Program-made: the position numbers and the translations under genes | Notes under the pieces: generated by a model | Seen by the model: the letters and a program-made list of their open reading frames with translations, nothing else | The model's database searches: none | Told to the model about the DNA's origin: nothing | NCBI GenBank assembly: GCA_965243025.1 | Contig: CBDETY010000003.1 | Location: forward strand, 3,968,001 to 4,032,000 | Reading direction: 5' to 3' | DNA: 64,000 nt | From: Candidatus Latescibacterota bacterium | GTDB taxonomy: Bacteria > Latescibacterota > UBA2968 > UBA8231 | Shown: piece by piece, positions 51,554 to 64,000 of the stretch | How the letters are laid out: each line of letters starts with the position of its first letter | How positions within the stretch are numbered: position 1 is the first letter of the stretch

Positions 51554-53263
51554 ATGGCCACAGGCTTGAAATCCGCGTTGTCCCAGTCCCTTTACCACAC
51601 CGTTCTCGCCGCGGGGGGGTTGCTGTTCGCGGCGCCGTTCCTGTGGCTTCTCAGCGGCAGCCTCAAGGAGCACGAGGAGTTCTACGCCCCCCGGCCGGTC
51701 TGGTTTCCCGCCATGCCGCAGAAGGTGGCTTCGTCGCCTTACGTCGAGCCTGGGGACGAAGGAGGCAGACCCGCCGGAATCCCGGCGGTCCGCTGGGCGG
51801 ACCTCGAACCGCGGCTTCTCGATGTCTTCGAAGAGCGCATACGCGAAACGGCTTCAGCGCACGTTCTCGAGACCCTCGACCTGCTGCCCGGATTGGGAAA
51901 GGTCGTGGCCCGCGGGGCCGTCAACAGTGTCGCGGCTCGTTTCGGCGCCGACCTCGGCCGCGACCGCGGCGTTCCCCGCAGCGACGACGAGGTCGTTGCT
52001 TTTGCGACCGGACAGATCGATGAGGAGCTCGTCGACCGCGCCTGGAGCCGGTCCTTCAGGGGCGTCCTCGTCGGAGAGCTGGTCGCCTACTACCGCGATG
52101 GCACCACCGAGACGGTGCTGGGATTCAGCCATTATCGAGGGGCTGATGCAGCGGCCGGCGTTTCCGCGGGTCCCCGGCTGGCGTACCAGGAGCGCCCCGG
52201 AACGCTTCTGGCCTATGATTTCGGCGGCGGCGGGCCCGCCGCCCTCGAACTGCCGCTCGCAGCACCGCTGCGGACCCGGGACATCGTTCGCCTGGTGCTG
52301 CCCGTACGCGGGGACCGGTCGTATCACGACCTCGTCGCAACCCTTCAGACCGGCGGGGCGACCTACCGGATCGGCGACCCCTTCGTGCTCGAAAACGACC
52401 GCTGGATGGATGCGATCTGGACTTTCGAGGATCCCACCCTGCGCGAGCGACGCACCGTGTACCATTCCGCCGACCTCACTCCCTTCGAGCAGCTCGACGG
52501 CTCCCGCGCCGGCGAGCACGGCCCCAGCCTGACCCTTGCGTTCGAGCGCGTGTCGTACCCCCGGGTGCTGTACAGGCGCCTGATTCGCAACTACGCCGGG
52601 GCCACTCTGGCCATCCCGTTCGCCAGATACTTCTACAACACAGTGGTTCTCACGGTCCTCAACATCGGTGCGACGCTGCTCTCCTGTTCGCTCATCGCCT
52701 ACGGTTTCGCGCGCCTGCGCTGGCCGGGCAGGGAGTTTCTGTTCGCCGTGGTATTGGCCACCATGATGCTTCCGCCTCAGGTGACGATGATCCCGCAGTT
52801 CCTCATCTGGCGAGGACTCGGCCAGTACGACACCTATCAGCCGCTCTGGCTGCCCGCCTTGTTCGGGTCGGGGTTTTTCATTTTTCTGATGCGCCAGTTC
52901 ATGCTGTCCATACCCAAGGATCTGGAGGATGCGGCGCGCATCGACGGCGCCGGGTACCTGGCGACCTTCCGGTATGTGATTCTGCCGCTGTTGAAACCGG
53001 CCCTGGCCGCGGTCTGCATCTTTCAGTTCATGGGTACCTGGAACGATTTCCTCGGGCCGCTGATCTATCTCAGTTCCCAGGACAAGGCGCCGCTGTCTCT
53101 CGGTCTGTTCCACTTCAGAGGCAGCCACTTCGTCAACGCCGTGGGTGAGGTGGGTCTGCTGATGGCGGCGAGCATGATCATGGTGCTGCCGGTAATCATC
53201 CTGTTCTTTTCCGCGCAGCGGTACTTCATCCAGGGCATCACCTTCACCGGGATGCGCAACTGA
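51554..53263 (+). CDS. MalG-type carbohydrate ABC permease with large extracytoplasmic insertion
   Basis: PFLWLLSGSLK, then about 300 soluble residues, then NY...YFYNT, AYGFARL, LEDAARIDGA, WNDFLGPL. Confidence 0.88.
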   Translation: MATGLKSALSQSLYHTVLAAGGLLFAAPFLWLLSGSLKEHEEFYAPRPVWFPAMPQKVASSPYVEPGDEGGRPAGIPAVRWADLEPRLLDVFEERIRETASAHVLETLDLLPGLGKVVARGAVNSVAARFGADLGRDRGVPRSDDEVVAFATGQIDEELVDRAWSRSFRGVLVGELVAYYRDGTTETVLGFSHYRGADAAAGVSAGPRLAYQERPGTLLAYDFGGGGPAALELPLAAPLRTRDIVRLVLPVRGDRSYHDLVATLQTGGATYRIGDPFVLENDRWMDAIWTFEDPTLRERRTVYHSADLTPFEQLDGSRAGEHGPSLTLAFERVSYPRVLYRRLIRNYAGATLAIPFARYFYNTVVLTVLNIGATLLSCSLIAYGFARLRWPGREFLFAVVLATMMLPPQVTMIPQFLIWRGLGQYDTYQPLWLPALFGSGFFIFLMRQFMLSIPKDLEDAARIDGAGYLATFRYVILPLLKPALAAVCIFQFMGTWNDFLGPLIYLSSQDKAPLSLGLFHFRGSHFVNAVGEVGLLMAASMIMVLPVIILFFSAQRYFIQGITFTGMRN

Positions 53264-53278
53264 ACAGCGGGGCGAGAT

Positions 53279-54457
53279 ATGGACGAACGCGCGATGAGCG
53301 AACGGGGCCGCGTGCGCATCACCGGCCTCAAGGCGATGGAGCTCAGGAACGCGGCCGGGCAGAGCCTGGTTCGCGTCGAGACGGACGCCGGACTGACCGG
53401 CATCGGCGAGGCGGGAGTCGCAGGACCGGCGGCGCGCGCCAACCTGCTGTGGCTCGAGCCCGTTCTCATCGGCGCCGACCCGCTCAACATCGACAAGCTC
53501 TATCACGAGATGATGGGCCTCCAGCATACCTTCCAGGCGCACGTGCCGACAGTCAGCGGCGTCGACATCGCCCTGTGGGACCTCGCCGGCAAGATCCTCG
53601 GTCTCCCGGTCAGCGACATGCTCACCGGCCGCTTCCGCGACCGCGTCGAGATCTACTACGGCGGGGCGCCGGCCGACTGGAGCGACCGGGCCGCGGTCGA
53701 CGACTGGGTCAGCGAGTTCCGCGCCCACCCCCACGGCTACCGCACCCTGAAGTTCGGCTTCGACCAACTGCTCGACAGCGGCCGGCTGTCGCGGCCCTAC
53801 AGGGCGGCCAGACCGGGTCAGACCCTGAACGGCAGCCACCTCAAGCGCATTCGCGACGGGTACGAGACCATGCGCGACGCTTTCGGCTGGGACCTCGACT
53901 TCATCGTCCACTGCCACAACGAGTGGGACGTGCCGTCGGCGATCGGCATTTCGCAGGCGGTGGAAGAGGTGCGGCCTCTGTGGATCGAAGACCCGCTGCA
54001 GGTCTGGTTTTCCGATGGGTACAAACAGCTCAGGGCGGCTTCCCGGGTGCCGGTCTGCACCGGCGAGAAGATCGAGGGGTTCCGCGACTTCTTCCCCTTC
54101 ATCGTCGAGGGCGGGATCGACGTGCTGCACCCCGACCTCTGCTGGTGCGGCGGCATCAGCGGCGGCCGCAAGATCGCCGAGCTCGCCGAACACTTCGGCC
54201 TGCCCGTGGCCCTGCACAACTGCGGCAGTCTCGTCCACAACATGGCCAACGTGCACTTCGGAGCGATGGTGAGAAACTTCAGCATGAGCGAGACGCGGCT
54301 GTACAGCCACGATTTCGTCGCCGAAATGGGAGGGCTCGACGGGTACGATTTCGTCGACGGCATGCTGGCGGTGCCCGACGGCCCGGGGCTGGGCATCGAC
54401 CTCGTGCCCGAGGTGCTGCGCGCCGAACTCAAGGAAGGGGAGCCGTTCTGGGATTGA
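53279..54457 (+). CDS. Mandelate racemase/enolase superfamily acid-sugar dehydratase
   Basis: VETDAGLTGIGE, SGVDIALWDLAGK, WIEDP, TGEK, HPD, LHN, PGLGID. Confidence 0.88.
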   Translation: MDERAMSERGRVRITGLKAMELRNAAGQSLVRVETDAGLTGIGEAGVAGPAARANLLWLEPVLIGADPLNIDKLYHEMMGLQHTFQAHVPTVSGVDIALWDLAGKILGLPVSDMLTGRFRDRVEIYYGGAPADWSDRAAVDDWVSEFRAHPHGYRTLKFGFDQLLDSGRLSRPYRAARPGQTLNGSHLKRIRDGYETMRDAFGWDLDFIVHCHNEWDVPSAIGISQAVEEVRPLWIEDPLQVWFSDGYKQLRAASRVPVCTGEKIEGFRDFFPFIVEGGIDVLHPDLCWCGGISGGRKIAELAEHFGLPVALHNCGSLVHNMANVHFGAMVRNFSMSETRLYSHDFVAEMGGLDGYDFVDGMLAVPDGPGLGIDLVPEVLRAELKEGEPFWD

Positions 54458-54459
54458 CC

Positions 54460-56184
54460 ATGGGCAAAGCCGACCCGGGAATCGCCATCCACATGCCGGG
54501 CCGGCTCGGGGAAGAACGCCCGGTCGGGGGCTGGCCCAACCTCGTGGAGGTCGCCGATCTCGCCATCGGCCACTTCAACGAAATCGCCGACCCGAACTTC
54601 AACTACATGGCCTACGTCGGCGGCTCGCTGGGGCTTTCCACCCCCTGCTTCACCCGCTCCCTGTGGGACTGGACCGAGGCCGCCTCATACGCGCTTCCGG
54701 GGCGCATCGCGGCACGGCGCCTCACCGGCAACCTGAGCGGCCAGGAGGTGGAGATCGGCCAGAGGCAGCTCACGCTGGCTTCCTTCTTCGATCTCGACGG
54801 GTTTGCCCACCGCGGATTCGCCACCGGGTGGAGCGAAGACACGAGCGTGGTCCTGTGGGAGCAGGGGCGCGTGCTGTTCACGCTGATGGCGTGGTTCCTC
54901 GAAAGCGAAGACGAGCGCCTCCTGCACTACGTGCGCGGCTTGCTGAAAGCGCTGAGGGGCGCCAGCGGTCTCGAGGGTTCCCGGCGGCTCTTCGACGCGC
55001 GCTTCAGCGTCGGGCAGCCGTTCACCGACGTGGCCCCGATGGTCCTGGTGGAGCCATTGATGAAGTACTGGGAGCTGACGGGCGACTCCGGCGCCCTCGA
55101 GTTCTGCGAGGGGATCGTCGACTGGGCCGTCCACCCGGAAACTCATTTCGTCGATGACGAGTACCGCTTCAGCGGCTGGCTGCGCTCGCTGGCCGCCGGA
55201 CTGGCCGGCATCGTGCGGTTCGCCGCGGCGACCGGCGACGACGCGCTGCTGGAAAAAACCGAGCGCATGTTCCGATCCGCCTCCGGCCTGACGGCGCGCT
55301 CAGGCGCCACGCCGGACACGGAGCCGTGCTGCACCAACATGGAGCTGACGACGTCGGCGGTTGCCCTGGCCCGGAGCGGACGCAGCGAATGGTGGGACCT
55401 GGTCGACCGCCACTTCAGGAACCACACCCTCGAATGCCAGTTCACCGATCCCGGCGGCGTGGAGCCCGGGTATGTCGGCGAAGACCCCGCGCCGGCCGAC
55501 GACACCCGCGACATCCTCCGCCGGTCGATTGGCGGCTTCACCTGGTCCTCGGCGCGGGAGCATTTCTTCCACCGCTCCAAACTGATGCTCTGCTGCGGCG
55601 GCAACGCCATGTGGACGCTCGGCAAGATCGCCGCCAACGCCGCCACCGAGGAAGGGGGAGAGCTGCGCGTCAACCTGCACTTCAGCCTCGACACGCCGCT
55701 GGCGTCGATCACCAACCGGGAGCCGTTCGAGGGAAAACTGGAAGTGATCCCGCGGCGCGAGGGCGCGGTCTGGGTTCGCAAGCCCGCGTACGCCGCATCG
55801 GTAGAAGCCACCGTCGACGGGGTTCCTGCCTCGCCGAAAACAACCGGCGATTACCTGCGCTTCGACAGCGTGCGCGAGGGCGCGCGCATCGTCCTGCAGT
55901 ACCCACTCCCGGAGAAGACCACGAGCGAAAAGACCATGGAGTCGCCGTTCGAGGCCGAAGACAAGGGGCGCGGCAGCTTTGCACCGGTGAAGTCCGACCC
56001 CGCGGTTTTCGAGGAGATCCAGACGACCTGGCGCGGTAACACGGTGCTGGCCATCGACTACGACAGCGATTCGCCGCACCCGAAACACCGGCTCTACCTC
56101 GACCGCATGGAGCGCTTTCGCAGCGGCGCCGGCCGCGAGGCTGCGGCGCGGTTCTTTCTCCCGGAACGGCCGTTCGAGTGGTAG
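54460..56184 (+). CDS. GH127/GH146-like (alpha/alpha)6 glycoside hydrolase
   Basis: ATG 54460; E-x-C (TEPCC) and CC (LCCGGN) Zn/Cys-nucleophile-type motifs; RNH..E.Q; C-terminal VRKP.Y and WRGNTV beta domain. Confidence 0.6.
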   Translation: MGKADPGIAIHMPGRLGEERPVGGWPNLVEVADLAIGHFNEIADPNFNYMAYVGGSLGLSTPCFTRSLWDWTEAASYALPGRIAARRLTGNLSGQEVEIGQRQLTLASFFDLDGFAHRGFATGWSEDTSVVLWEQGRVLFTLMAWFLESEDERLLHYVRGLLKALRGASGLEGSRRLFDARFSVGQPFTDVAPMVLVEPLMKYWELTGDSGALEFCEGIVDWAVHPETHFVDDEYRFSGWLRSLAAGLAGIVRFAAATGDDALLEKTERMFRSASGLTARSGATPDTEPCCTNMELTTSAVALARSGRSEWWDLVDRHFRNHTLECQFTDPGGVEPGYVGEDPAPADDTRDILRRSIGGFTWSSAREHFFHRSKLMLCCGGNAMWTLGKIAANAATEEGGELRVNLHFSLDTPLASITNREPFEGKLEVIPRREGAVWVRKPAYAASVEATVDGVPASPKTTGDYLRFDSVREGARIVLQYPLPEKTTSEKTMESPFEAEDKGRGSFAPVKSDPAVFEEIQTTWRGNTVLAIDYDSDSPHPKHRLYLDRMERFRSGAGREAAARFFLPERPFEW

Positions 56185-56294
56185 GGGATGTCCCCCTTTA
56201 AAGAGAGAGCATCCGAGTCTCTGGCCCCGGAGCAGGCAACTGCCCTTCCCTGAAAACCCTCGCAGCTGCACCGAGCCAGGAAAGGACCCTTCGT

Positions 56295-59200
56295 TCAACC
56301 CGGTCGACTCACGTCGATTACACAGACCGATATTTTGCGCGCCTCTTCGGGAGACAGGGTAGCTTTCAGCTGCTCCTTCAGCTCCTTGGCGTTCATCGGA
56401 GAAGTGCCTGAGGGAGGCGGTACCTGTGTGTGTTCTTTTCCAAACCAGAACACAAGGTAAATACCGTACCCGTCTGTCTCCGGATCGGTGGTGTACTTTG
56501 GGATCAATTGGTTTCGCGGAGCACTCCAGAGATCCGGATGTGAATTCTTCTTGATTTCCAGCGGAACCTGAAAATCCCCGTATGCAACTCGTATGTCCGC
56601 CCGCTTGTTGTTGACGTATTGAATCTCGGGTTCGGCATTGGAGAAGTACCGCCTTAGATCTTGCAGCAGCGCATCTCGGCAAGAGTTCTCGTGCTTCGGG
56701 GTTGTCGGTCTCTGGCTTTCGTCCTCGTTCCAGTACGGACGCCAATAGTTGGCATTGTTCGTACTAACTCGTTCTGCGATTTCATCGAAGCGGTCCACCA
56801 TAAGGGCGGCAAGGTCAGCTGCGTTGGCCGGCGTTCCGCCGTTCAGCGTTTGACAGACCTGCTTGATGCTCAGGTGACGGTAACCGGCGTCACGGCAGAT
56901 CACCCGTTGGGCATCCTGCGCCCGAGAAAGCTCCTCGTGCCAGTTGGTCAGCTCCGGGTCGGCGACCAGCCTGCAAAGAGCATGGCTCGACTCCTTTGTG
57001 GGAGAAGCGGCGAGGCGTTGGATCTGACCGTAGACAAGCCATGCAGCTTCCATTTCCGGCCCTACGAACCCGCCCTCATCATCATCCGCATTACCAACTC
57101 GCCTCTGATCCGGTCCGACGCAGGTTCCAACAAGGCGTATGAGAAGCTCCAATACCGGAATCCCCAGATCGTCAAAGGAAAACCGAATGGGATCTTGAAA
57201 GGAAAAGAACTCAGCCAGATTCGAAATTCGGCGCTCGTTGCCCTCTGCGAAGTCAGACAACAGGGCCTTGTACCTCGCGGGCGAGACGATGACCCCCAAA
57301 GCCAACCAACGCACGCGCTGGGCGTCGTTCATGCTCTTCCGGGATAACTTCATTCCGATCAGTTCCTGAAGCGCAGATCTGTCTGCATGCTGCAGTGCCG
57401 CCCAAAGCAGATGTTTCAGGTTTTCGATCTGGTGCAGCTTGCAGCGAGTCGGAAATGCGCGGAGCAGGGGCATGCTCGCATGTCTGGCGACTTGCGCGTG
57501 ATTCTCTCTATGGGCGAGCGCAAAGAGTCCGGTAAGCTTCCTACCGCCACGGAGTTCGACCTTGCCGGACAGTATCATTACATGGGCTACGATACCGGGC
57601 TCTGAATCGAGGAGGCGTTGGTACCAATTAGGCTCGATGGAACTGGACAAAGAAAAATGGAATGCCAGTGCTTTGCGCATCTGACCTTCATCGAGGCGAC
57701 ACAGCTCCTCTGGTGAGGATCTTTCGAATTCCGACAGGGCGGCAAGAAACGGAAAGCCGAGATAGTGCCTGCGATCCGTTGCTCTGAGCGCCAGAATCTC
57801 CTCATCCCCCGGAACGTCTTTCCGGTCGACAACCCCACGGATACCCATGATTGCTGCATCGATCAAGTTGGGATCTTCCAGCTCCTGCTCTATATCCTTC
57901 GGTCCTCCTTGACGGTGAACATTGATGGAATTTCCGAAGTACCTGATCGCAATCTGTTCAAGTAAGGCGGGGGCTGCTCGGTTCTCACGCAGCGCGACTT
58001 CGTTGGAGCGGATAAGTTCGAGCCATTGCTCTTCTCGCAGCCGTCGTTCCTCGGTGAATGTCCTCGCCCGTTCCCGCAATCTCTGTTGCCGCGGCGTAAT
58101 AGACCGAGGAGCAAGCAGTTGATCCAGTTTGGGCTTCAGCCATTCTCTTTTCTCTGCGTGATCCTGCAGTACCTCGAGGGACAGTCCCTCGTTTCCGTTT
58201 TGAGAAGCGTGCGCGCTGACCGCCAACTCAAACAGGTGTTCTGCAATCTCCCGCTTAGAGCCTTCCATGGAGACGGCCTGCTTCAGGCACCAGAGACCAA
58301 AGTCGGACGGCAGGCTTGAACCGTACCATCGTTCCGAGATCTCTATTACGTGTGGGCTGAATCCGTCAGACTCGAGACAGCGCTCCAAACCCTTGATTAC
58401 GAGGACCTTCTGAACCTTTGGACGCTGCTCCAGCCAGGAGCGTATCTCCTGGATGTCCTCCATGTCGCCGACTTGGATTTCGTCCAGATCCTCCGTGAAA
58501 CCCAGATTTAGCCAATCATACAGACGCTCTGTCGCCAGTCGATCCCCGTGCACTTGCAGGCCTCGGGCGAGCAGCTTCACGGGAAGGTTCTCAAGAGTGC
58601 TACTGCCCTTCAGAGTTGGGTGCGTGTCCGCAGGACGCTCGCCCAAAGTGTCGAGGAGCTCCGCGATCTGATCGTCTGAGGACTTCTCAAGAAGGGCGAA
58701 CCAGAAAAACCACTTGTACATGCCGAAAAATGACTCTCGGTGACGTGTCTCGAAATAGATGTCACACACCTGCGACGGTGAAAGGTGCTTGGGATAAAGT
58801 TCGTTTAGCAGGATTCCCAGGAGTTCGTTGTCCGGATCGGAGACGCGTCTGTTGCGGATATCAGCAAGCAGCGATTTAAAATTGTCGGCCTTACCCTGGC
58901 TTTCCGGGCAGTTGTGGATGAAGGCATTGAGAGCGGATGCGTTGACGCGAGGCCAGCGTGTATCGTCCCGGGCAGTTGCGATCAGGAGCACGCCAAGGTC
59001 TGACAAGGGCTTACCTTCGGTCAGTACGCGCAAGACGAAATCGGTGAACATCTGGTGGTCCGGGCTGCGATCGCTGTCCCGAAGCGCCTCGCTGAGATCG
59101 ACTTCCATCTCAGACGTAGCGAGGGCGCCAAAGGCCTCCGCAGACCTCCGTACTGTACCAAGCCGGGCCCCCTCTCGCTTCAGGGATTTCAGCAGCGCCC

Positions 59201-60374
59201 GTTTCTCGTCGACAGAAAACTCTCCGATTTCTCCGTACAGTCCGACACCGATCGGGTCGCGTTCGATGAGATCAGGCCTGGCTTCCCTGGAATTGGCCGC
59301 CAGCCAGGCGGACAGGCCCCGCATCTCGGTGACCACGGTGCCGTCCTCGCCCGTTATCAGGGAAATAACCCGACGGGCGGGGAGGCCGTTCTGGACGACC
59401 CTGGCGAGGTGCCGGGCACCGAGGAATTCAGCGACATGGCGATGAACGGGGATAAAGCGGTTGCTGGAGGCGCCCTTGAACAGCTTCGTGGCGAGTGCGG
59501 AACGGAGCACTTGGGGGTCGTAATCGCACTTGTCCAGAGCGGGGTACTCCTCGTCCGGCTGGCCGCGCAGGGTGTAGCCCGCCCCGCCCGAAATCAGTTG
59601 AAGTGCGCAGAGACGTCCGGCGGCGTCGAGGAGCTGGTCGTGGGGGGGTGAACTTCCCGACTCTTGCGACGCTTGATGCTCCTCGTTGTGCTCGAGGACC
59701 ATCTGGCCGCTGGCCATCTCGAAAGTCTCTTTTCGGCTCTCCGGCCACCCCCCACCCCCGCCAACGACATCCGCCAGCATCTCCAGGGTTTGCGGGTTCT
59801 CCAACAGGCCCTCGACGCCCCGCTTCCGCGCTTCCTCGATGAAGGCCCCGGCATCTCCGATTTCCGCCCGAGCATCCAGGATCGAGGTGACATCCGTATC
59901 CGTCAGGGGATAAAGCCGCAGGACCCTCAACGGGGAATCCGGTGAAACGGATTCCAAATGCTTCTGGTCATTTTCTCCCAGCCAGTCCGCTTCCCGGCAG
60001 GACAGCCGGAAGCGCGGCTTGCCCAAGGCGTCCAGCTTCCGCCGGACCTGGTCGAAGGGCGTGCCCACGTTCGACGTGCCGGCTCGGATCTCATCGAGTC
60101 CGTCGATGAAGAGGATCTTGCCGCGCCACTCGGGGTGGTGCTGCGGATCAAAGGCCAGAAAGTCGCGGGCGGGTATCTTCAACGCCTGCTCCCCAAGCGC
60201 CTCGCACTCGGCCTCAAACGCAGTCGTCTTGCCGGCCCCAGGGTCCCCGAGCAGCACGTAGGCCGGCGCGTCGCGGAACTCCTCCAGGGGCCGGGACCGC
60301 TCGTCCCCAGGCTGATTCCGCTGCTCCTTCCTTGGGGGGATTTCCGTACAGGTGCGGGGTACGATCACCTTCAT
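56295..60374 (-). CDS. NACHT/STAND NTPase with long helical region and C-terminal PD-(D/E)xK nuclease
   Basis: ATG 60374 (ATGA overlap), 1359 aa. Walker A GDPGAGKT; Walker B FIDGLDE; LSCR; NPQTL; HRHVAEFLGA. C-terminal EN.CRD...KRADI...PLEIKK...NQL..KY...GIYLVFWFG. Confidence 0.85.
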   Translation of the reverse strand: MKVIVPRTCTEIPPRKEQRNQPGDERSRPLEEFRDAPAYVLLGDPGAGKTTAFEAECEALGEQALKIPARDFLAFDPQHHPEWRGKILFIDGLDEIRAGTSNVGTPFDQVRRKLDALGKPRFRLSCREADWLGENDQKHLESVSPDSPLRVLRLYPLTDTDVTSILDARAEIGDAGAFIEEARKRGVEGLLENPQTLEMLADVVGGGGGWPESRKETFEMASGQMVLEHNEEHQASQESGSSPPHDQLLDAAGRLCALQLISGGAGYTLRGQPDEEYPALDKCDYDPQVLRSALATKLFKGASSNRFIPVHRHVAEFLGARHLARVVQNGLPARRVISLITGEDGTVVTEMRGLSAWLAANSREARPDLIERDPIGVGLYGEIGEFSVDEKRALLKSLKREGARLGTVRRSAEAFGALATSEMEVDLSEALRDSDRSPDHQMFTDFVLRVLTEGKPLSDLGVLLIATARDDTRWPRVNASALNAFIHNCPESQGKADNFKSLLADIRNRRVSDPDNELLGILLNELYPKHLSPSQVCDIYFETRHRESFFGMYKWFFWFALLEKSSDDQIAELLDTLGERPADTHPTLKGSSTLENLPVKLLARGLQVHGDRLATERLYDWLNLGFTEDLDEIQVGDMEDIQEIRSWLEQRPKVQKVLVIKGLERCLESDGFSPHVIEISERWYGSSLPSDFGLWCLKQAVSMEGSKREIAEHLFELAVSAHASQNGNEGLSLEVLQDHAEKREWLKPKLDQLLAPRSITPRQQRLRERARTFTEERRLREEQWLELIRSNEVALRENRAAPALLEQIAIRYFGNSINVHRQGGPKDIEQELEDPNLIDAAIMGIRGVVDRKDVPGDEEILALRATDRRHYLGFPFLAALSEFERSSPEELCRLDEGQMRKALAFHFSLSSSIEPNWYQRLLDSEPGIVAHVMILSGKVELRGGRKLTGLFALAHRENHAQVARHASMPLLRAFPTRCKLHQIENLKHLLWAALQHADRSALQELIGMKLSRKSMNDAQRVRWLALGVIVSPARYKALLSDFAEGNERRISNLAEFFSFQDPIRFSFDDLGIPVLELLIRLVGTCVGPDQRRVGNADDDEGGFVGPEMEAAWLVYGQIQRLAASPTKESSHALCRLVADPELTNWHEELSRAQDAQRVICRDAGYRHLSIKQVCQTLNGGTPANAADLAALMVDRFDEIAERVSTNNANYWRPYWNEDESQRPTTPKHENSCRDALLQDLRRYFSNAEPEIQYVNNKRADIRVAYGDFQVPLEIKKNSHPDLWSAPRNQLIPKYTTDPETDGYGIYLVFWFGKEHTQVPPPSGTSPMNAKELKEQLKATLSPEEARKISVCVIDVSRPG

Positions 60375-61624
60375 GCTTCCTCGAACCAGTGATGGGCGGG
60401 AACCGTGAGAAACTCGTTGAGGGGTATCCCACCCTCCCCGACCCGCAACGAGCGGTGGGGGCTGAAGCGTTTTTCGAACTCGTCCATTCCTGGCAATTGG
60501 GTTTTCATCGCGCCGCTCTTCACCTCGATGGCGACAAGCCGGGAACCCCGCTTCAGGACGAAGTCGACCTCCTGGGATCCGTCCCGCCAGTAACCAAGAC
60601 GGACATCCGGCGCGGCGGTGTTGAACAGGTGCGCCCCTGCCGCGCTCTCCACGATGCGGCCCCAGAAGGTGCGGTCCGCCTGAGCCTCCTCGAAGGAATA
60701 CCCGGAACCGGCCGTCATCAGCGCCGTGTTGAGCACATTGAGCTTGGGACTGGAAGCGCGCCGGGAAGCGCGGCTGCCGGTGTATTTCTGCAGGCCCGCG
60801 AGCAGTCCGGCGCTCGCCAGCAGGTCGAGGTAGCGCGCCAGAGTAGTCGTGTTCCCTGCGTCCTGAAGCTGCCCCAGCATATTGGTGTACGACAGGATCT
60901 GCCCGGAACAGGAGGCCCCAAGCTCGAAGAGCCCCTTCAGCAGTGCCGGTTTGTCCACCCGGGTCAAATCGAGGAGGTCGCGCTCGATGTTCGGCTCCAC
61001 GAGAGCCCCGAGGATGTAGCTGCGCCACCGGTCAGGCTCCCGGACGAGCCGGTCGGCCCCCGGGTAGCCTCCGAAATAGAGGTATTTCGGCAGGTCGACC
61101 CCGAAGGCCCTGGACATCTCCGCAAATGACCAGTGGGTGACGCGGATCGGTTCGAATCGGCCTGCAAGGCTCTCGCTCAATCCCGACTGCATGAGCAGGG
61201 GAGCCGAGCCGAGGATGACCACGTGCAAGGGACAGTCTCTGGCGCGGTCGGCGTCCCACAGCCCCTTCACGGTGTCGGACCACCCCTCGATCTTCTGGAT
61301 CTCGTCCAAGACCAGCACAGACCCACGCGGCGCACCTTCAGCCTCGAGCCGGGCTTCTTCCCACTGGCGCACCAGCCATTCCCTGTCCCGCTCCACCGGC
61401 GTACGGAACGTGGCCTCGGCCTCACCGTACGGGTCCCGGAACTCAGGAGAGTCGGGCTCATCGACGGCCAGGTAGCGGCTCCCCAAATCAGTGCGTCGCA
61501 GAGCCTGGCGCACGATGGTGGTCTTGCCGGTCTGACGCGGGCCGAACAGGGCGATGAGGAGATGGGGCGGCTCCGCGAGCCGCTCGACGAGTGTGTTTAC
61601 CTGTGAACGTTCGAAAGGCTGCAT
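60371..61624 (-). CDS. AAA_14 ATPase with wHTH and C-terminal DUF4143 (PD-(D/E)xK-like) domain
   Basis: GPRQTGKTT; VLDEIQK; LGS; SLAGR; GGYP; YWRD..EVDFV...AIEVKSG. Confidence 0.9.
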   Translation of the reverse strand: MQPFERSQVNTLVERLAEPPHLLIALFGPRQTGKTTIVRQALRRTDLGSRYLAVDEPDSPEFRDPYGEAEATFRTPVERDREWLVRQWEEARLEAEGAPRGSVLVLDEIQKIEGWSDTVKGLWDADRARDCPLHVVILGSAPLLMQSGLSESLAGRFEPIRVTHWSFAEMSRAFGVDLPKYLYFGGYPGADRLVREPDRWRSYILGALVEPNIERDLLDLTRVDKPALLKGLFELGASCSGQILSYTNMLGQLQDAGNTTTLARYLDLLASAGLLAGLQKYTGSRASRRASSPKLNVLNTALMTAGSGYSFEEAQADRTFWGRIVESAAGAHLFNTAAPDVRLGYWRDGSQEVDFVLKRGSRLVAIEVKSGAMKTQLPGMDEFEKRFSPHRSLRVGEGGIPLNEFLTVPAHHWFEEA

Positions 61625-61631
61625 GTGCCCG

Positions 61632-61669
61632 AATTTACGTTACTGAGTAATTTTACTCAATAGAGTAAC
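61632..61669 (-). promoter_or_regulatory. Promoter of the AAA/NACHT operon overlapped by palindromic operator half-sites
   Basis: Minus strand TTGAGT (61660-61655), N17, TAAATT (61637-61632); 7 nt separate the -10 from the ATG. Overlapping GTTACT-g-AGTAA-tt-TTACTC-aata-GAGTAAC. Confidence 0.55.
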
Positions 61670-61765
61670 CTCCAAAACTTGCCGCTCCTTTGGGGAAAAG
61701 GATAGGTCAAGTCAGTCGGGGTTCGGGAGGGGAAGACGTGGTGGAGCTATGGGAGTGTCTTCTGG

Positions 61766-61990
61766 CTATTTCACCTTGAGGAGCTCTTCAACTCTGAGCC
61801 CGATATCACTTGCGATTTGACGAAGCAGAATGGGCGAAATGTCTCGCCCCTTGTGGAATGGAACGGTCGTTCCTCTTCCATCCGCATGGCGATACTGTTT
61901 GTGTGAACCTCGCTGACGCACTTCGCGAAAGCCGAGCATCTCGAGCAACCGGATCACTTCTCGAGGTTTGAGTGCCGGTATATCGGGCAT
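61766..61990 (-). CDS. hicA: HicA family toxin (mRNA interferase)
   Basis: MPDIPALKPREVIRLLEMLGF..VRQRGSH...TTVPFH...LLRQI; TGATG overlap with hicB. Confidence 0.92.
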   Translation of the reverse strand: MPDIPALKPREVIRLLEMLGFREVRQRGSHKQYRHADGRGTTVPFHKGRDISPILLRQIASDIGLRVEELLKVK

Positions 61991-62196
61991 CAGGTAGTGA
62001 CTATCTGTTGTATACCGACAAACTCGGAATCCAGATCCGGCGCGCCGTCCTCGAGAAGCATTTCGACCACTTCCTTCAGGTTTTCGTTCAGTTCGTCCAA
62101 CGTCTCCCCCTGCGAATGGGCACCTGCAAAACCAGGCACGTACCCGACATACAGCCGGGTATCCCTGCACCATTCCACAACAGCAGTAAATCGCAT
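61990..62196 (-). CDS. hicB: HicB family antitoxin (short, no DNA-binding domain)
   Basis: YVGYVPGFAGAHSQGETLDELNENLKEVVEMLLE; 68 aa. Confidence 0.9.
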   Translation of the reverse strand: MRFTAVVEWCRDTRLYVGYVPGFAGAHSQGETLDELNENLKEVVEMLLEDGAPDLDSEFVGIQQIVTT

Positions 62197-62331
62197 TTCG
62201 GTCTCTCTTGTCTTTGAGGCAGGTGAGATGATTTGGCAGCGGGGCCAGCTCCACCAGTCCTTGTGGTAACTTTGCCCGTACGGCTGCCCGCTATCTTCCA
62301 CCTCGACACAGGGGATGTCAACCAATTGGCC

Positions 62332-62475
62332 GAGAGCCACTGGCACGGCCAAAACTTCTGCCAGGGCACGGTCTGCGAGATGCTGGAGAATCCGGGGGAG
62401 GAGATCTTCGACGTCATCCGCCTGTTCGGAGAGCGCGGCAAGATCTTCAACGTCCACTTCCGCAACATCCGCGGC
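62332..62475 (+). pseudogene. Internal fragment of mannonate dehydratase (UxuA family)
   Basis: [44 protein letters not shown] matches the UxuA FCxG...VHxRN core; neither end of the gene is present. Confidence 0.7.
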
Positions 62476-62547
62476 GCCGGTGTTCGAGGTACCGCCCGCC
62501 CCCTATATTGCCCGCGGCACCTGACCCGGAAAATCGGCCGCTCCCCA

Positions 62548-63690
62548 ATGACCGAAACTCCACCCGAAGAAAAACGCCCCGACCGCAAGACGGTCGCCCT
62601 GTGGCGCGAGCACTGGCAGGACGAAAGCGACGCCGCCTTCCTCTACCGCCGGCTCGCCGCCTCCTCCACCGACGAGGAGAAGCGGGATCTCTACCTCAAG
62701 CTCGCCGCGGTCGAGGAGAAGCACACCGGGGTCTGGGAGAAGATCTTCGTCGACCACGGGATCCCGGTGCCCCCCCGGAAGCCCTCCGCGCGGGCCCGCC
62801 TGATGGCCTGGGTCGCCGGCAGGTTCGGCCCCGACATGCTGCAGAACCTGCTGCTGCGGGAAGAGGGGCTCGAGGTCAGGGGGTACATCTCGCTCTACCG
62901 GGAGAGCGATCCCGGCTCGACGGCTGACGCCGCCCTGCTCCTGGCCAGGGAATCCGCCCACCATGCCGAGACCCTGTCGAAGCTGGCCTCCAGCGAAGGG
63001 GAGCCCTGGCACTACACGAGGTCGGGCGGCTTCCTGCGCAACGTGGTGTACGGGTTCAACGACGGCCTGACAGCGAACTTCGGACTCGTCGCCGGCGTCG
63101 TCGGCGCCCAGGTCGAGGCTGCCTTCATCATGCTTACCGGCGTCGCCGGAATGATCGCCGACGCCCTCTCCATGGGCGCCTCCGGCTACCTGGCGGCCAA
63201 GAGCGAGCGCGAGGTCTACGACCACGAGATCAAGGTGGAGCGGGAAGAGCTGCGCTTCATGCCGGAGATCGAGGAGGAGGAGCTCGCTCTCCTTTACCAG
63301 ACCAAGGGGGTGCAGGAGGAGAGCGCCCGCGAGATCGCGCGGGAGATCATGAAGTCCCCGGAGAAGGCCCTCGACGTGATGGTGCAGGAGGAGCTCGGCA
63401 TCGGGGAGCAGCGCGTCACCCCCTTCCGCGAGGGCTGGATCACCGGCATCGCCACCGCGGTGGGCGCCTCCATCCCGGTGGCTCCGTTCCTGTTGCTGAG
63501 CGGTCCGGCCGCCATCTGGACCTCCTTCGGCGTCTCGATGTTCTCCCACTTCGCGGTCGGCGCCGCGCGCAGTGTCTTCACCGGCCGCAGCCTGTTCCGC
63601 AGCGGCGTCGACATGCTCATGGTCGGCTTCGGCGTGGCCGCCATCGGCTACCTGGTCGGCGAGCTCGCCGTCAAGTACTGGCTCGGTTAG
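62548..63690 (+). CDS. VIT1/CCC1 family metal transporter with N-terminal ferritin/rubrerythrin-like domain
   Basis: E..AA.LY, EEKH, ESAHH di-iron-type motifs; [20 protein letters not shown]; TM helices. ATG 62548. Confidence 0.88.
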
Positions 63691-63820
63691 CAGCCCCTCT
63701 CAAGCGGAGATACGGCCCGGCACCTGCCCCGGCGGCCCCCGGGCATGTCCCCGTCGCCAGCCTTACCTTTTCCGGGCCCTCGCCCCGGAAGCCCAACTTC
63801 ATACCCTCGGGAAGTCACCC

Positions 63821-64000
63821 ATGGAAAACCGCGGCTGGAACGACAGCGCCAAAGCCAAACCCGCCGCCGACATCGACATCCGCTGCGGCTCCGGCCTGCT
63901 GCGCCGCGAGAGCCGGAACTGGCCCCCGTACGGAGTCGTGACCACCCCGAGCGCCTGGAAGGCGGCGCGTCCCCACCTCGCCCGCGAGCCTGACGGAATC
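63821..64000 (+). CDS. Partial CDS running off the window (possibly iron-containing alcohol/glycerol-phosphate dehydrogenase N-terminus)
   Basis: ATG 63821 with frame open to the end: MENRGWNDSAK...IRCGSGLL...VVTTPSAW; function is a weak guess. Confidence 0.4.
   Translation, partial: MENRGWNDSAKAKPAADIDIRCGSGLLRRESRNWPPYGVVTTPSAWKAARPHLAREPDGI

Follow-up and report, generated by a model that had tools for sequence, protein, structure and literature searches.

The DNA analysed here is a window of 64,000 nucleotides (nt) from a Candidatus Latescibacterota bacterium (GenBank assembly GCA_965243025.1, contig CBDETY010000003.1, positions 3,968,001 to 4,032,000 of the forward strand), and all positions given below are those of the window. 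Two genes on its minus strand overlap by four nucleotides and form a candidate two-gene anti-phage system. Gene 1 (P0001) encodes an ATPase fused to a nuclease-like domain, and gene 2 (P0002), directly downstream, encodes a NACHT-type STAND NTPase that is a relative of the antiphage protein EruA. Here we describe the family assignments of the two genes, their conserved pairing and the predicted structures of their products, together with a proposal for how the pair may work. The features of the pair are the following.

60371-61624, minus strand: gene 1 (P0001), 417 amino acids, AAA+ ATPase fused to DUF4143 (PD-(D/E)xK-like), upstream partner of the NACHT gene.
61517-61543, minus strand: Walker A motif of the ATPase, GPRQTGKTT, residues 28-36, invariant across 28 aligned partners.
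61394-61453, minus strand: variable post-DEP loop of the ATPase, residues 58-77, restricted to NACHT-linked ATPases.
60518-60571, minus strand: PD-(D/E)xK-like motif of the ATPase, E352-V-D354...E367-V-K369, assigned by conservation.
60371-60374, minus strand: ATGA overlap of the gene 1 stop and the gene 2 start, read directly from the sequence.
56295-60374, minus strand: gene 2 (P0002), 1359 amino acids, NACHT-type STAND NTPase with helical sensor and C-terminal nuclease, relative of EruA.
59175-60374, minus strand: NTPase module of gene 2, residues 1-400, with P-loop domain, helical domain and winged-helix region in the model.
60225-60248, minus strand: Walker A motif of gene 2, GDPGAGKT, residues 43-50.
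60090-60113, minus strand: Walker B motif of gene 2, LFIDGLDE, residues 88-95 (DGLDE at 91-95).
56823-59174, minus strand: all-helical repeat region in the model, presumed sensor, residues about 401-1184.
56298-56822, minus strand: C-terminal PD-(D/E)xK nuclease-like domain, residues 1185-1359, assigned by model and motif.
56550-56597, minus strand: catalytic motif of gene 2, D1260...E1273-x-K1275.

Much of this anatomy had been read in a preliminary description made from the letters alone, and it is indeed present. The two P-loop genes are coupled by the ATGA at 60371-60374; gene 1 carries EVDFV at residues 352-356 and IEVK at 366-369; gene 2 opens almost at once with its NTPase, the Walker A motif lying already at residues 43-50, and has no N-terminal effector; and its C-terminal motif is intact (E1250, D1260, E1273-I-K1275, Q1289-L1290 and Y1294). 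The middle of gene 2, called helical and poorer in G+C by the same description, consists of helices only in our model and has a G+C content of 0.54-0.57 over 56500-59000, as compared to 0.63-0.69 in the surroundings (500-nt windows). The G+C content at third codon positions (GC3) is 0.81 in the ATPase gene and up to codon 200 of the NACHT gene, and 0.58-0.68 further along gene 2. Relative to its closest relative (locus L002) the NACHT gene is a mosaic, with an identity of 0.60-0.66 over residues 401-800 and of 0.83 over residues 801-1000. Together, the fall in GC3 and the mosaic identity suggest recombination inside the sensor region.

Gene 1, regarded at first as an unclassified ATPase, has a full-length match to a catalogued defence candidate. 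P0001 matches the Pfam families AAA_14 (E 5e-21) and DUF4143 (E 7e-27), both above their cutoffs, and the PADLOC model PDLC04791 of PDC-S01 with an E-value of 2.6e-159 (residues 4-414 against positions 2-394 of a profile of 395); by profile, it is a member of PDC-S01. In the source that catalogues it, PDC-S01 is an ATPase fused to a PD-(D/E)xK domain and a single-gene candidate, and is said to rank fourth in frequency among the defence systems detected in prokaryotes; experimental validation is described as pending for most such candidates, PDC-S01 among them (PMC12988326). P0001 shares the AAA_14 and DUF4143 domains of that family, as well as the Walker A, the Walker B and the E-x-D...E-x-K motif that are common to its solo members. 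It differs in its genetic setting: whereas PDC-S01 is catalogued as a single gene, P0001 opens a two-gene operon of fixed composition, and the ATPases of its NACHT-linked clade always lie directly upstream of a NACHT gene. NCBIfam yielded neither an antiphage family that matches P0001 nor a model for a partner ATPase, and the accessions that adjoin the ProA, HyoA and EruA models belong to unrelated families. Sequence searches returned no relative of the ATPase with a solved structure, and its match to TniB is weak (E 0.0036, below the Pfam cutoff).

Gene 2, likewise put forward as undescribed, aligns end to end with a curated antiphage family. P0002 scores 917.7 bits against the NCBIfam model NF058535 ("NACHT domain-containing antiphage protein EruA"), in a single collinear stretch (residues 20-1356 against positions 8-1318 of the 1318-position profile), and the sister model HyoA also matches, with 170 bits. 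EruA is the protein of what we take to be the Erebus system. The curated cutoff of the EruA model is 1000 bits, and it is reached in none of the 168 genomes of the phylum, where the best relative scores 986.9 bits. In total, 2716 homologues of P0002 were found, and PF28130 is the Pfam family precomputed on P0002 homologues; a Pfam search with P0002 itself gave no match, and for NACHT none at E 0.1 or better. The preliminary description had seen novelty in an "inverted-architecture" NLR, and this part of it does not stand. The order with the NTPase first and the nuclease last was found in 92 of 92 aligned relatives, and because it is common to these relatives and to the full-length EruA profile, it is probably the normal layout of the family.

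A match to an already described system thus exists for each gene separately, and it does not extend to the pair. What appears to be new is the fixed pairing, each gene being already catalogued as a defence family. To all appearance the pair is not a named system: no paper describing a NACHT-ATPase pair was found in the literature searched, a search that did not extend to supplements, which may list accessory genes.

To assess the pairing, 61 related genomes were searched with the EruA model, followed by 168 genomes of the phylum. The model matches 14 of the 61 (E 0.001 or better) and 35 of the 168 (E 1e-100 or better), in each case below its cutoff; a single-protein scan of the genome contigs gave only 3 loci. 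Among 37 genome loci, a set that includes the window's own locus and two duplicate pairs, a P0001-like gene lies directly upstream of the NACHT gene in 33. In these paired loci the ATPases are 66-83% identical to P0001 and the NACHT proteins 49-71% identical to P0002. The exceptions are a locus without upstream DNA (L008), for which the ATPase was found by the genome search, a gene remnant (L009), a weak match (L010), and a full-length solo NACHT gene of 34% identity (L045), whose 1413 nt of upstream sequence hold no ATPase.

Metagenomes were scanned with an alignment of the 37 homologues, using peptide patterns taken from the paired clade, and gave 80 loci, near-duplicates included. The ATPase is directly upstream in 69 of the 80, or in 69 of the 75 that are assessable, since 5 of the 11 loci without it have less than 300 nt of upstream sequence; the assessable solo NACHT loci are L072, L099, L100, L102, L109 and L118. 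Identity to the window is 29-64% for the NACHT proteins and 47-79% for the ATPases of the metagenome loci. The junction of the two genes is kept throughout. The genes overlap by 4 nt in 45 of the 89 distinct junctions, by 1 nt in 13 and by other lengths in 10; the remaining 21 have gaps of 2-26 nt, and no gap exceeds 30 nt. With the ATPase adjacent in 33 of the 37 loci from genomes and in 69 of the 75 assessable ones from metagenomes, and with such junctions, the pair is conserved and not a chance neighbourhood; the preliminary description had named rare adjacency of NACHT homologues and ATPase as the finding that would speak against a system, and the loci show clearly the opposite.

The reverse search, with P0001 in the 61 genomes, gave 18 places at E 1e-20 or better. 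All 9 full or near-full ATPase matches at an identity of at least 71% lie beside an EruA-like gene, as does a 74-residue fragment of 65% identity that belongs to a frameshifted copy in genome G002. None of the 8 places at 55-60% identity lies beside an EruA-like match, and around 6 of these 8 solo ATPases no P0002-like sequence occurs within about 7 kb on each side. Solo PDC-S01 genes of the same phylum are 52-57% identical to P0001 by tblastn.

Decayed or extra copies were also encountered. Genome G002 (C1:642839-648143) holds two cassettes, in one of which the ATPase is split into two frames; G019 (C1:2981223-2985460) holds cassette fragments with a TGA stop; and in G042 (C2:3716301-3717693, locus L009) only C-terminal remnants are left. 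The loci L011 and L041, and likewise L012 and L034, encode identical NACHT proteins under public titles of metagenome-assembled genomes that name Gemmatimonadetes on one side and Candidatus Latescibacterota on the other. The genomes concerned fall in one family, so these public labels conflict.

The linked ATPases carry a mark of their own. The post-DEP loop, about 10 to 35 residues long, occurs in each of the 86 distinct linked ATPases; the 6 solo PDC-S01 members examined lack it. In a FastTree phylogeny of 92 ATPases the solo members all fall on one side of a single well-supported branch; the tree contains only these six solos, all of one phylum, and is taken as unrooted. Of the two proteins the ATPase is the more conserved, with a mean distance of 0.24 as against 0.415 for the NACHT protein. 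A tree built from 92 NACHT proteins requires a minimum of 3-4 changes to account for the solo state. Three homologues from proteobacterial plasmids are sister to all other NACHT proteins when the tree is rooted at its midpoint; their identity is about 30%, and each is solo (3 of 3 examined), with defence genes around it and no ATPase. As a reading of this tree, one gain of the partner ATPase followed by several losses would fit. One of the solo EruA-like genes, locus L014, lies on a conjugative plasmid of Pantoea ananatis (NZ_CP054910.1, 873-3581), where it is preceded by a gene annotated as a TrlF family AAA-like ATPase, a family other than PDC-S01.

The catalytic residues of both proteins are almost invariant among 92 relatives, which bears out the earlier impression of intact motifs. 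In the ATPase, K34, D107, E108 and E352 are each conserved in 92 of 92 sequences, D354 in 89, and E367 and K369 in 91. In gene 2, K49, D91, D94, E95, R127, D1260, E1273 and K1275 are kept in 92 of 92, as are Q1289 and Y1294, whereas E1250 is kept in 90; L1290 is invariant in alignments of 37 and of 29 rows.

Residues 1-1200 of P0002 were modelled from a 29-sequence alignment (model m7872c310e3ce), with a mean predicted local distance difference test score (pLDDT) of 79.6. The model shows a P-loop alpha/beta domain with strands at residues 8-12, 38-42, 64-68, 87-91, 122-126 and 150-154, then helical and winged-helix regions up to about residue 400, and from there to residue 1200 helices only. 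When compared to the PDB with Foldseek, it matched Avs4 (8dgf, E 6.7e-7), NLRC4 (4kxf, 3.5e-6) and NOD2 (5irm, 1.5e-5), followed by NLRP9 and NLRP3. Judged by the model, residues 1-400 have a STAND/NLR fold, with a helical sensor after it. The putative sensor, residues about 400-1184, has a pLDDT mostly of 80-95, and among the proteins matched by its helices are solenoids like CAND1 and the karyopherins; no other part of the protein varies as much, column identity being mostly 0.42-0.55 as compared to 0.60-0.74 in the NTPase module. Within it, residues about 758-815 (window about 57930-58103) gave the sole match when the 37-homologue profile was searched against PDB sequences, a weak one to a chloroplast ribosome recycling factor (E 2e-4); it falls in a helical stretch, is probably due to chance and was set aside.

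The C-terminal part, residues 1090-1359, was folded separately (model m543dfe441c34, mean pLDDT 80.9). Its highest structural matches in VIA-align were BamHI (Z 7.3, root-mean-square deviation 4.2, 141 residues aligned), BstYI (7.1), CdiA-CT (6.9) and BglII (6.8); CinB, OkrAI, Can2, EcoT38I, LlaBIII, PaqCI and HamA (Z 5.8) were further top matches, and chain M of the McrBC complex entry 6hz4 reached Z 5.6. Foldseek found nothing at E 0.001 or better with this model, several of the weak rows being restriction enzymes. Because Z-scores below 8 are common for unrelated folds, the assignment as a putative nuclease relies on how uniform the hits are and on the invariant motif; in the model, D1260 opens one strand, and E1273 and K1275 lie on the strand that follows.

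The immediate surroundings of the pair were annotated as well. Directly upstream and on the same strand lies a HicAB-like, putative toxin-antitoxin module, as the preliminary description had pointed out, with the following features.

61766-62190, minus strand: HicB-like and HicA genes, upstream neighbours outside the conserved pair (Pfam; start codons not fixed).
About 61796-61963, minus strand: HicA domain (Pfam HicA_toxin, E 2.9e-19).
About 62047-62187, minus strand: HicB-like domain (matches to UPF0150 and HicB_lk_antitox).

The HicA domain is clear (E 3e-19; 69.4 bits against a cutoff of 27) and the HicB-like match weak, the open reading frame (ORF) scoring 27.4 bits for UPF0150 (cutoff 27.3) and 24.6 for HicB_lk_antitox (cutoff 27). 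HicAB was considered as a component of the system and rejected, since none of the other loci retrieved matches HicA or HicB. To the left of the pair, on the plus strand, are ABC sugar-transport genes, an enolase-superfamily gene and a 573-aa ORF without an assigned family; the right neighbour is a VIT1-family gene. The 573-aa ORF (54463-56184) converges on the NACHT gene, has a GC3 of about 0.9 and a native-like codon bias, and matches nothing in Pfam or PADLOC; it is absent at the corresponding site in genome G002 and has a 344-bp indel in G001.

The site varies between related genomes. In G001, a genome of the same genus (locus L127, C1:1291700-1298300), the flanks are syntenic at 85-93% identity, and about 2.4 kb with a DUF433 and DUF5615 pair take the place of window positions 55635-62328, which comprise HicAB and the cassette. 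In G002, also of the same genus (locus L128, C1:641300-650500), a copy of the cassette adjoins the same enolase-type gene, with a DNA identity of 71-78% as against 93% for the flank, and is followed by a stretch like the HicAB region. Since one genome holds other cargo and the other a divergent cassette next to a flank of 93% identity, the interval that separates the enolase-type cluster from the VIT1 gene is, to judge from this comparison, a variable spot for toxin-antitoxin or defence cargo. No tRNA gene was found in 52000-64000, and no transposase or integrase at the locus; the flanks share only short matches attributable to chance, and scans for promoters and terminators gave no more than the shuffled controls. 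Stretches of about 80-150 nt at 62329-62476 and 53553-53647 recur, with 72-97% identity, at many places of four related genomes and are probably dispersed repeats or conserved motifs.

Enrichment in defence islands, proposed as a check on the system, finds weak support. In its favour are scattered PADLOC matches in flanking ORFs of the relatives, where a run on 150 of 233 ORFs returned HEC-01, reverse transcriptase, type IIG restriction-modification, AbiLi, AriA and PtuA, each in 1-3 ORFs as a raw, uncontrolled count; known defence genes also stand beside some relatives, such as the Shedu and HEPN genes at one plasmid homologue. On the other side, the window's own neighbours, transport and metabolic genes, gave no PADLOC match.

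Among characterised systems, the closest to gene 2 is Erebus/EruA, which has the same length and the same collinear layout of NACHT-type NTPase, helical sensor and PD-(D/E)xK-like nuclease; the differences are the EruA score below the cutoff and the upstream ATPase-nuclease partner of the gene 2 clade. A recent preprint study unites Erebus, Hypnos and bNACHT64 as Avs10 and reports that this family senses phage major capsid proteins, that the TPR-like sensor binds one copy of the target, and that mutation or deletion of effector domains abolished cell death (10.64898/2026.01.04.697583). Each of these Avs10 parts has a likely counterpart in gene 2: the NTPase in the GDPGAGKT and DGLDE motifs and the Foldseek matches to Avs4 and NLR proteins, the helical sensor in the all-helical model of residues about 400-1184, and the nuclease effector in the invariant D1260, E1273 and K1275, with modest fold scores. 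Avs1-4 likewise combine a STAND NTPase, a helical sensor and a nuclease effector, and Avs4 is the best structural match, with a sequence identity of 11% in the structural alignment. Their order is different, however: the typical STAND layout has the effector at the N-terminus (10.64898/2026.01.04.697583), and the classic Avs order continues with a central NTPase and a C-terminal sensor, whereas in gene 2 the NTPase begins near residue 8 already and residues 1185-1359 form the putative nuclease. McrBC-like and Hachiman-like systems resemble the pair in fold and logic only, as they too combine an NTPase motor with a nuclease of restriction-endonuclease fold; they pair an NTPase with a nuclease, whereas here both proteins carry an NTPase and a nuclease domain, and profile and sequence searches of solved structures gave no sequence-level relation to them.

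We consider the pair to be a two-gene variant of an NLR-like anti-phage system of the Erebus/Avs10 kind, with the ATPase as its obligate partner, at a probability of roughly 0.55. By homology with Avs10, the helical sensor of the NACHT protein would most likely bind a conserved structural protein of the phage, for which the major capsid protein is the candidate. Binding would cause the NTPase modules to oligomerise and bring the C-terminal nuclease domains together, and the assembled nucleases would then cut DNA, so that the infection is aborted. The ATPase, presumably translated from the same message as the NACHT protein, would act on DNA as a second, ATP-driven nuclease that is licensed or recruited by the activated NACHT assembly, through whatever contact the two proteins may make.

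Several observations weigh against this proposal. The NACHT protein can stand alone, as it does in the three plasmid homologues, in L045 and in six metagenome loci, and no segment specific to the paired form, such as a possible docking domain, was found in it, the only difference being a 7-residue indel. The divergences of the two proteins correlate with r = 0.81 over 28 pairs, a value that none of 2000 Mantel permutations equalled, and this demonstrates linkage and not contact, because co-inherited genes co-diverge anyway and the loci are interrelated, which inflates the linkage statistics. The paired fraction of 92% in the metagenomes may overstate pairing in the wider family, because that sample was drawn with peptide patterns of the paired clade. 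Since its score lies under the EruA cutoff, gene 2 is by profile a relative rather than a curated equivalog of EruA, and the fold of its predicted nuclease scores only Z 5-7.3. The activity of Avs10 was obtained from E. coli expressing the STAND protein, and the passages of that study dealing with it mention no accessory gene (10.64898/2026.01.04.697583). One PDC-S01 gene, expressed alone in E. coli B, is reported not to be among four candidates that protected against T7, T5 or T4 (bioRxiv 10.1101/2024.09.26.614923), a result that concerns the ATPase family alone. A complex prediction of the ATPase with NACHT residues 1-400 and 1185-1359 scored 0.00 and weighs neither way.

The solo occurrences raise the question of whether the genes are two independent single-gene defence systems, tightly linked, each acting alone and kept together only through the clustering of defence genes and their movement as cassettes. 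Both genes do occur alone, the NACHT gene as above and PDC-S01 at 52-57% or 55-60% identity in the same phylum, and the missing pair-specific feature of the NACHT protein is in line with this. Order, orientation and a junction of at most 30 nt are nevertheless kept in 89 of 89 cases over a range of NACHT identity of 29-71%, which is far tighter than the clustering seen in defence islands. Moreover, every ATPase of at least 71% identity in the 61 genomes is linked, the linked ATPases carry their clade-specific loop, and the solo ATPases are confined to one side of a single branch of the ATPase tree, and we therefore regard independence as rather unlikely. Strict co-inheritance, with an ATPase more conserved than the sensor, would also agree with a guard or regulator arrangement. 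In such a case the NACHT protein would monitor a front-line ATPase-nuclease and fire when a phage inhibits or modifies it, or the ATPase would restrain the NACHT nuclease until infection; the exposed loop of the linked clade could be the monitored or contacting surface, and translational coupling, as suggested by the overlaps, would fix the ratio of the proteins. The solo NACHT relatives share the same full-length layout, though, related Avs10 proteins are reportedly triggered directly by the capsid protein (10.64898/2026.01.04.697583), and the data here give no sign of contact between the two proteins, which leaves a guard or regulator role improbable.

A role outside defence, in a mobile element or in DNA housekeeping, for example as a transposition-type module of AAA+ protein and restriction endonuclease with a large regulatory STAND protein, would accommodate the weak TniB match of the ATPase (E 0.0036) and the position of the cassette in a site whose cargo differs among related genomes. 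We think it very improbable, as neither a transposase or integrase nor a tRNA gene or flanking repeats were found at the locus, the homologues that have been curated are antiphage proteins, and some relatives stand beside known defence genes (Shedu, HEPN and the scattered PADLOC matches). A two-component Erebus/Avs10-like system thus remains our preferred interpretation. As a wider and tentative suggestion, with the odds leaning against it, a whole clade of PDC-S01 ATPase-nucleases might not stand alone but serve an NLR-like sensor as its own second enzyme; capsid sensing by the NACHT protein might license the motor-nuclease on DNA, and the two-gene form, rather than the single gene studied to date, might be the usual state of Erebus/Avs10 in environmental bacteria.

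As they stand, annotation tools would report the cassette as two adjacent single-gene systems and overlook that it is a single conserved operon. Should the two genes act together, Erebus/Avs10 would include a large, widely distributed clade of two-component systems, and PDC-S01 would gain a testable role; this could also explain the lack of protection reported for the lone PDC-S01 gene (bioRxiv 10.1101/2024.09.26.614923). Were a PDC-S01 clade the second enzyme of the NLR, PDC-S01 would have its first functional context, and bacteria would offer a case in which an NLR works through a distinct enzyme as executor. The pair is a simple experimental system, with two genes, four catalytic motifs and a probable trigger that is known. 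It is of value mainly for the connection it suggests, by which a candidate family that is very common and still unvalidated would be tied to an NLR-like sensor.

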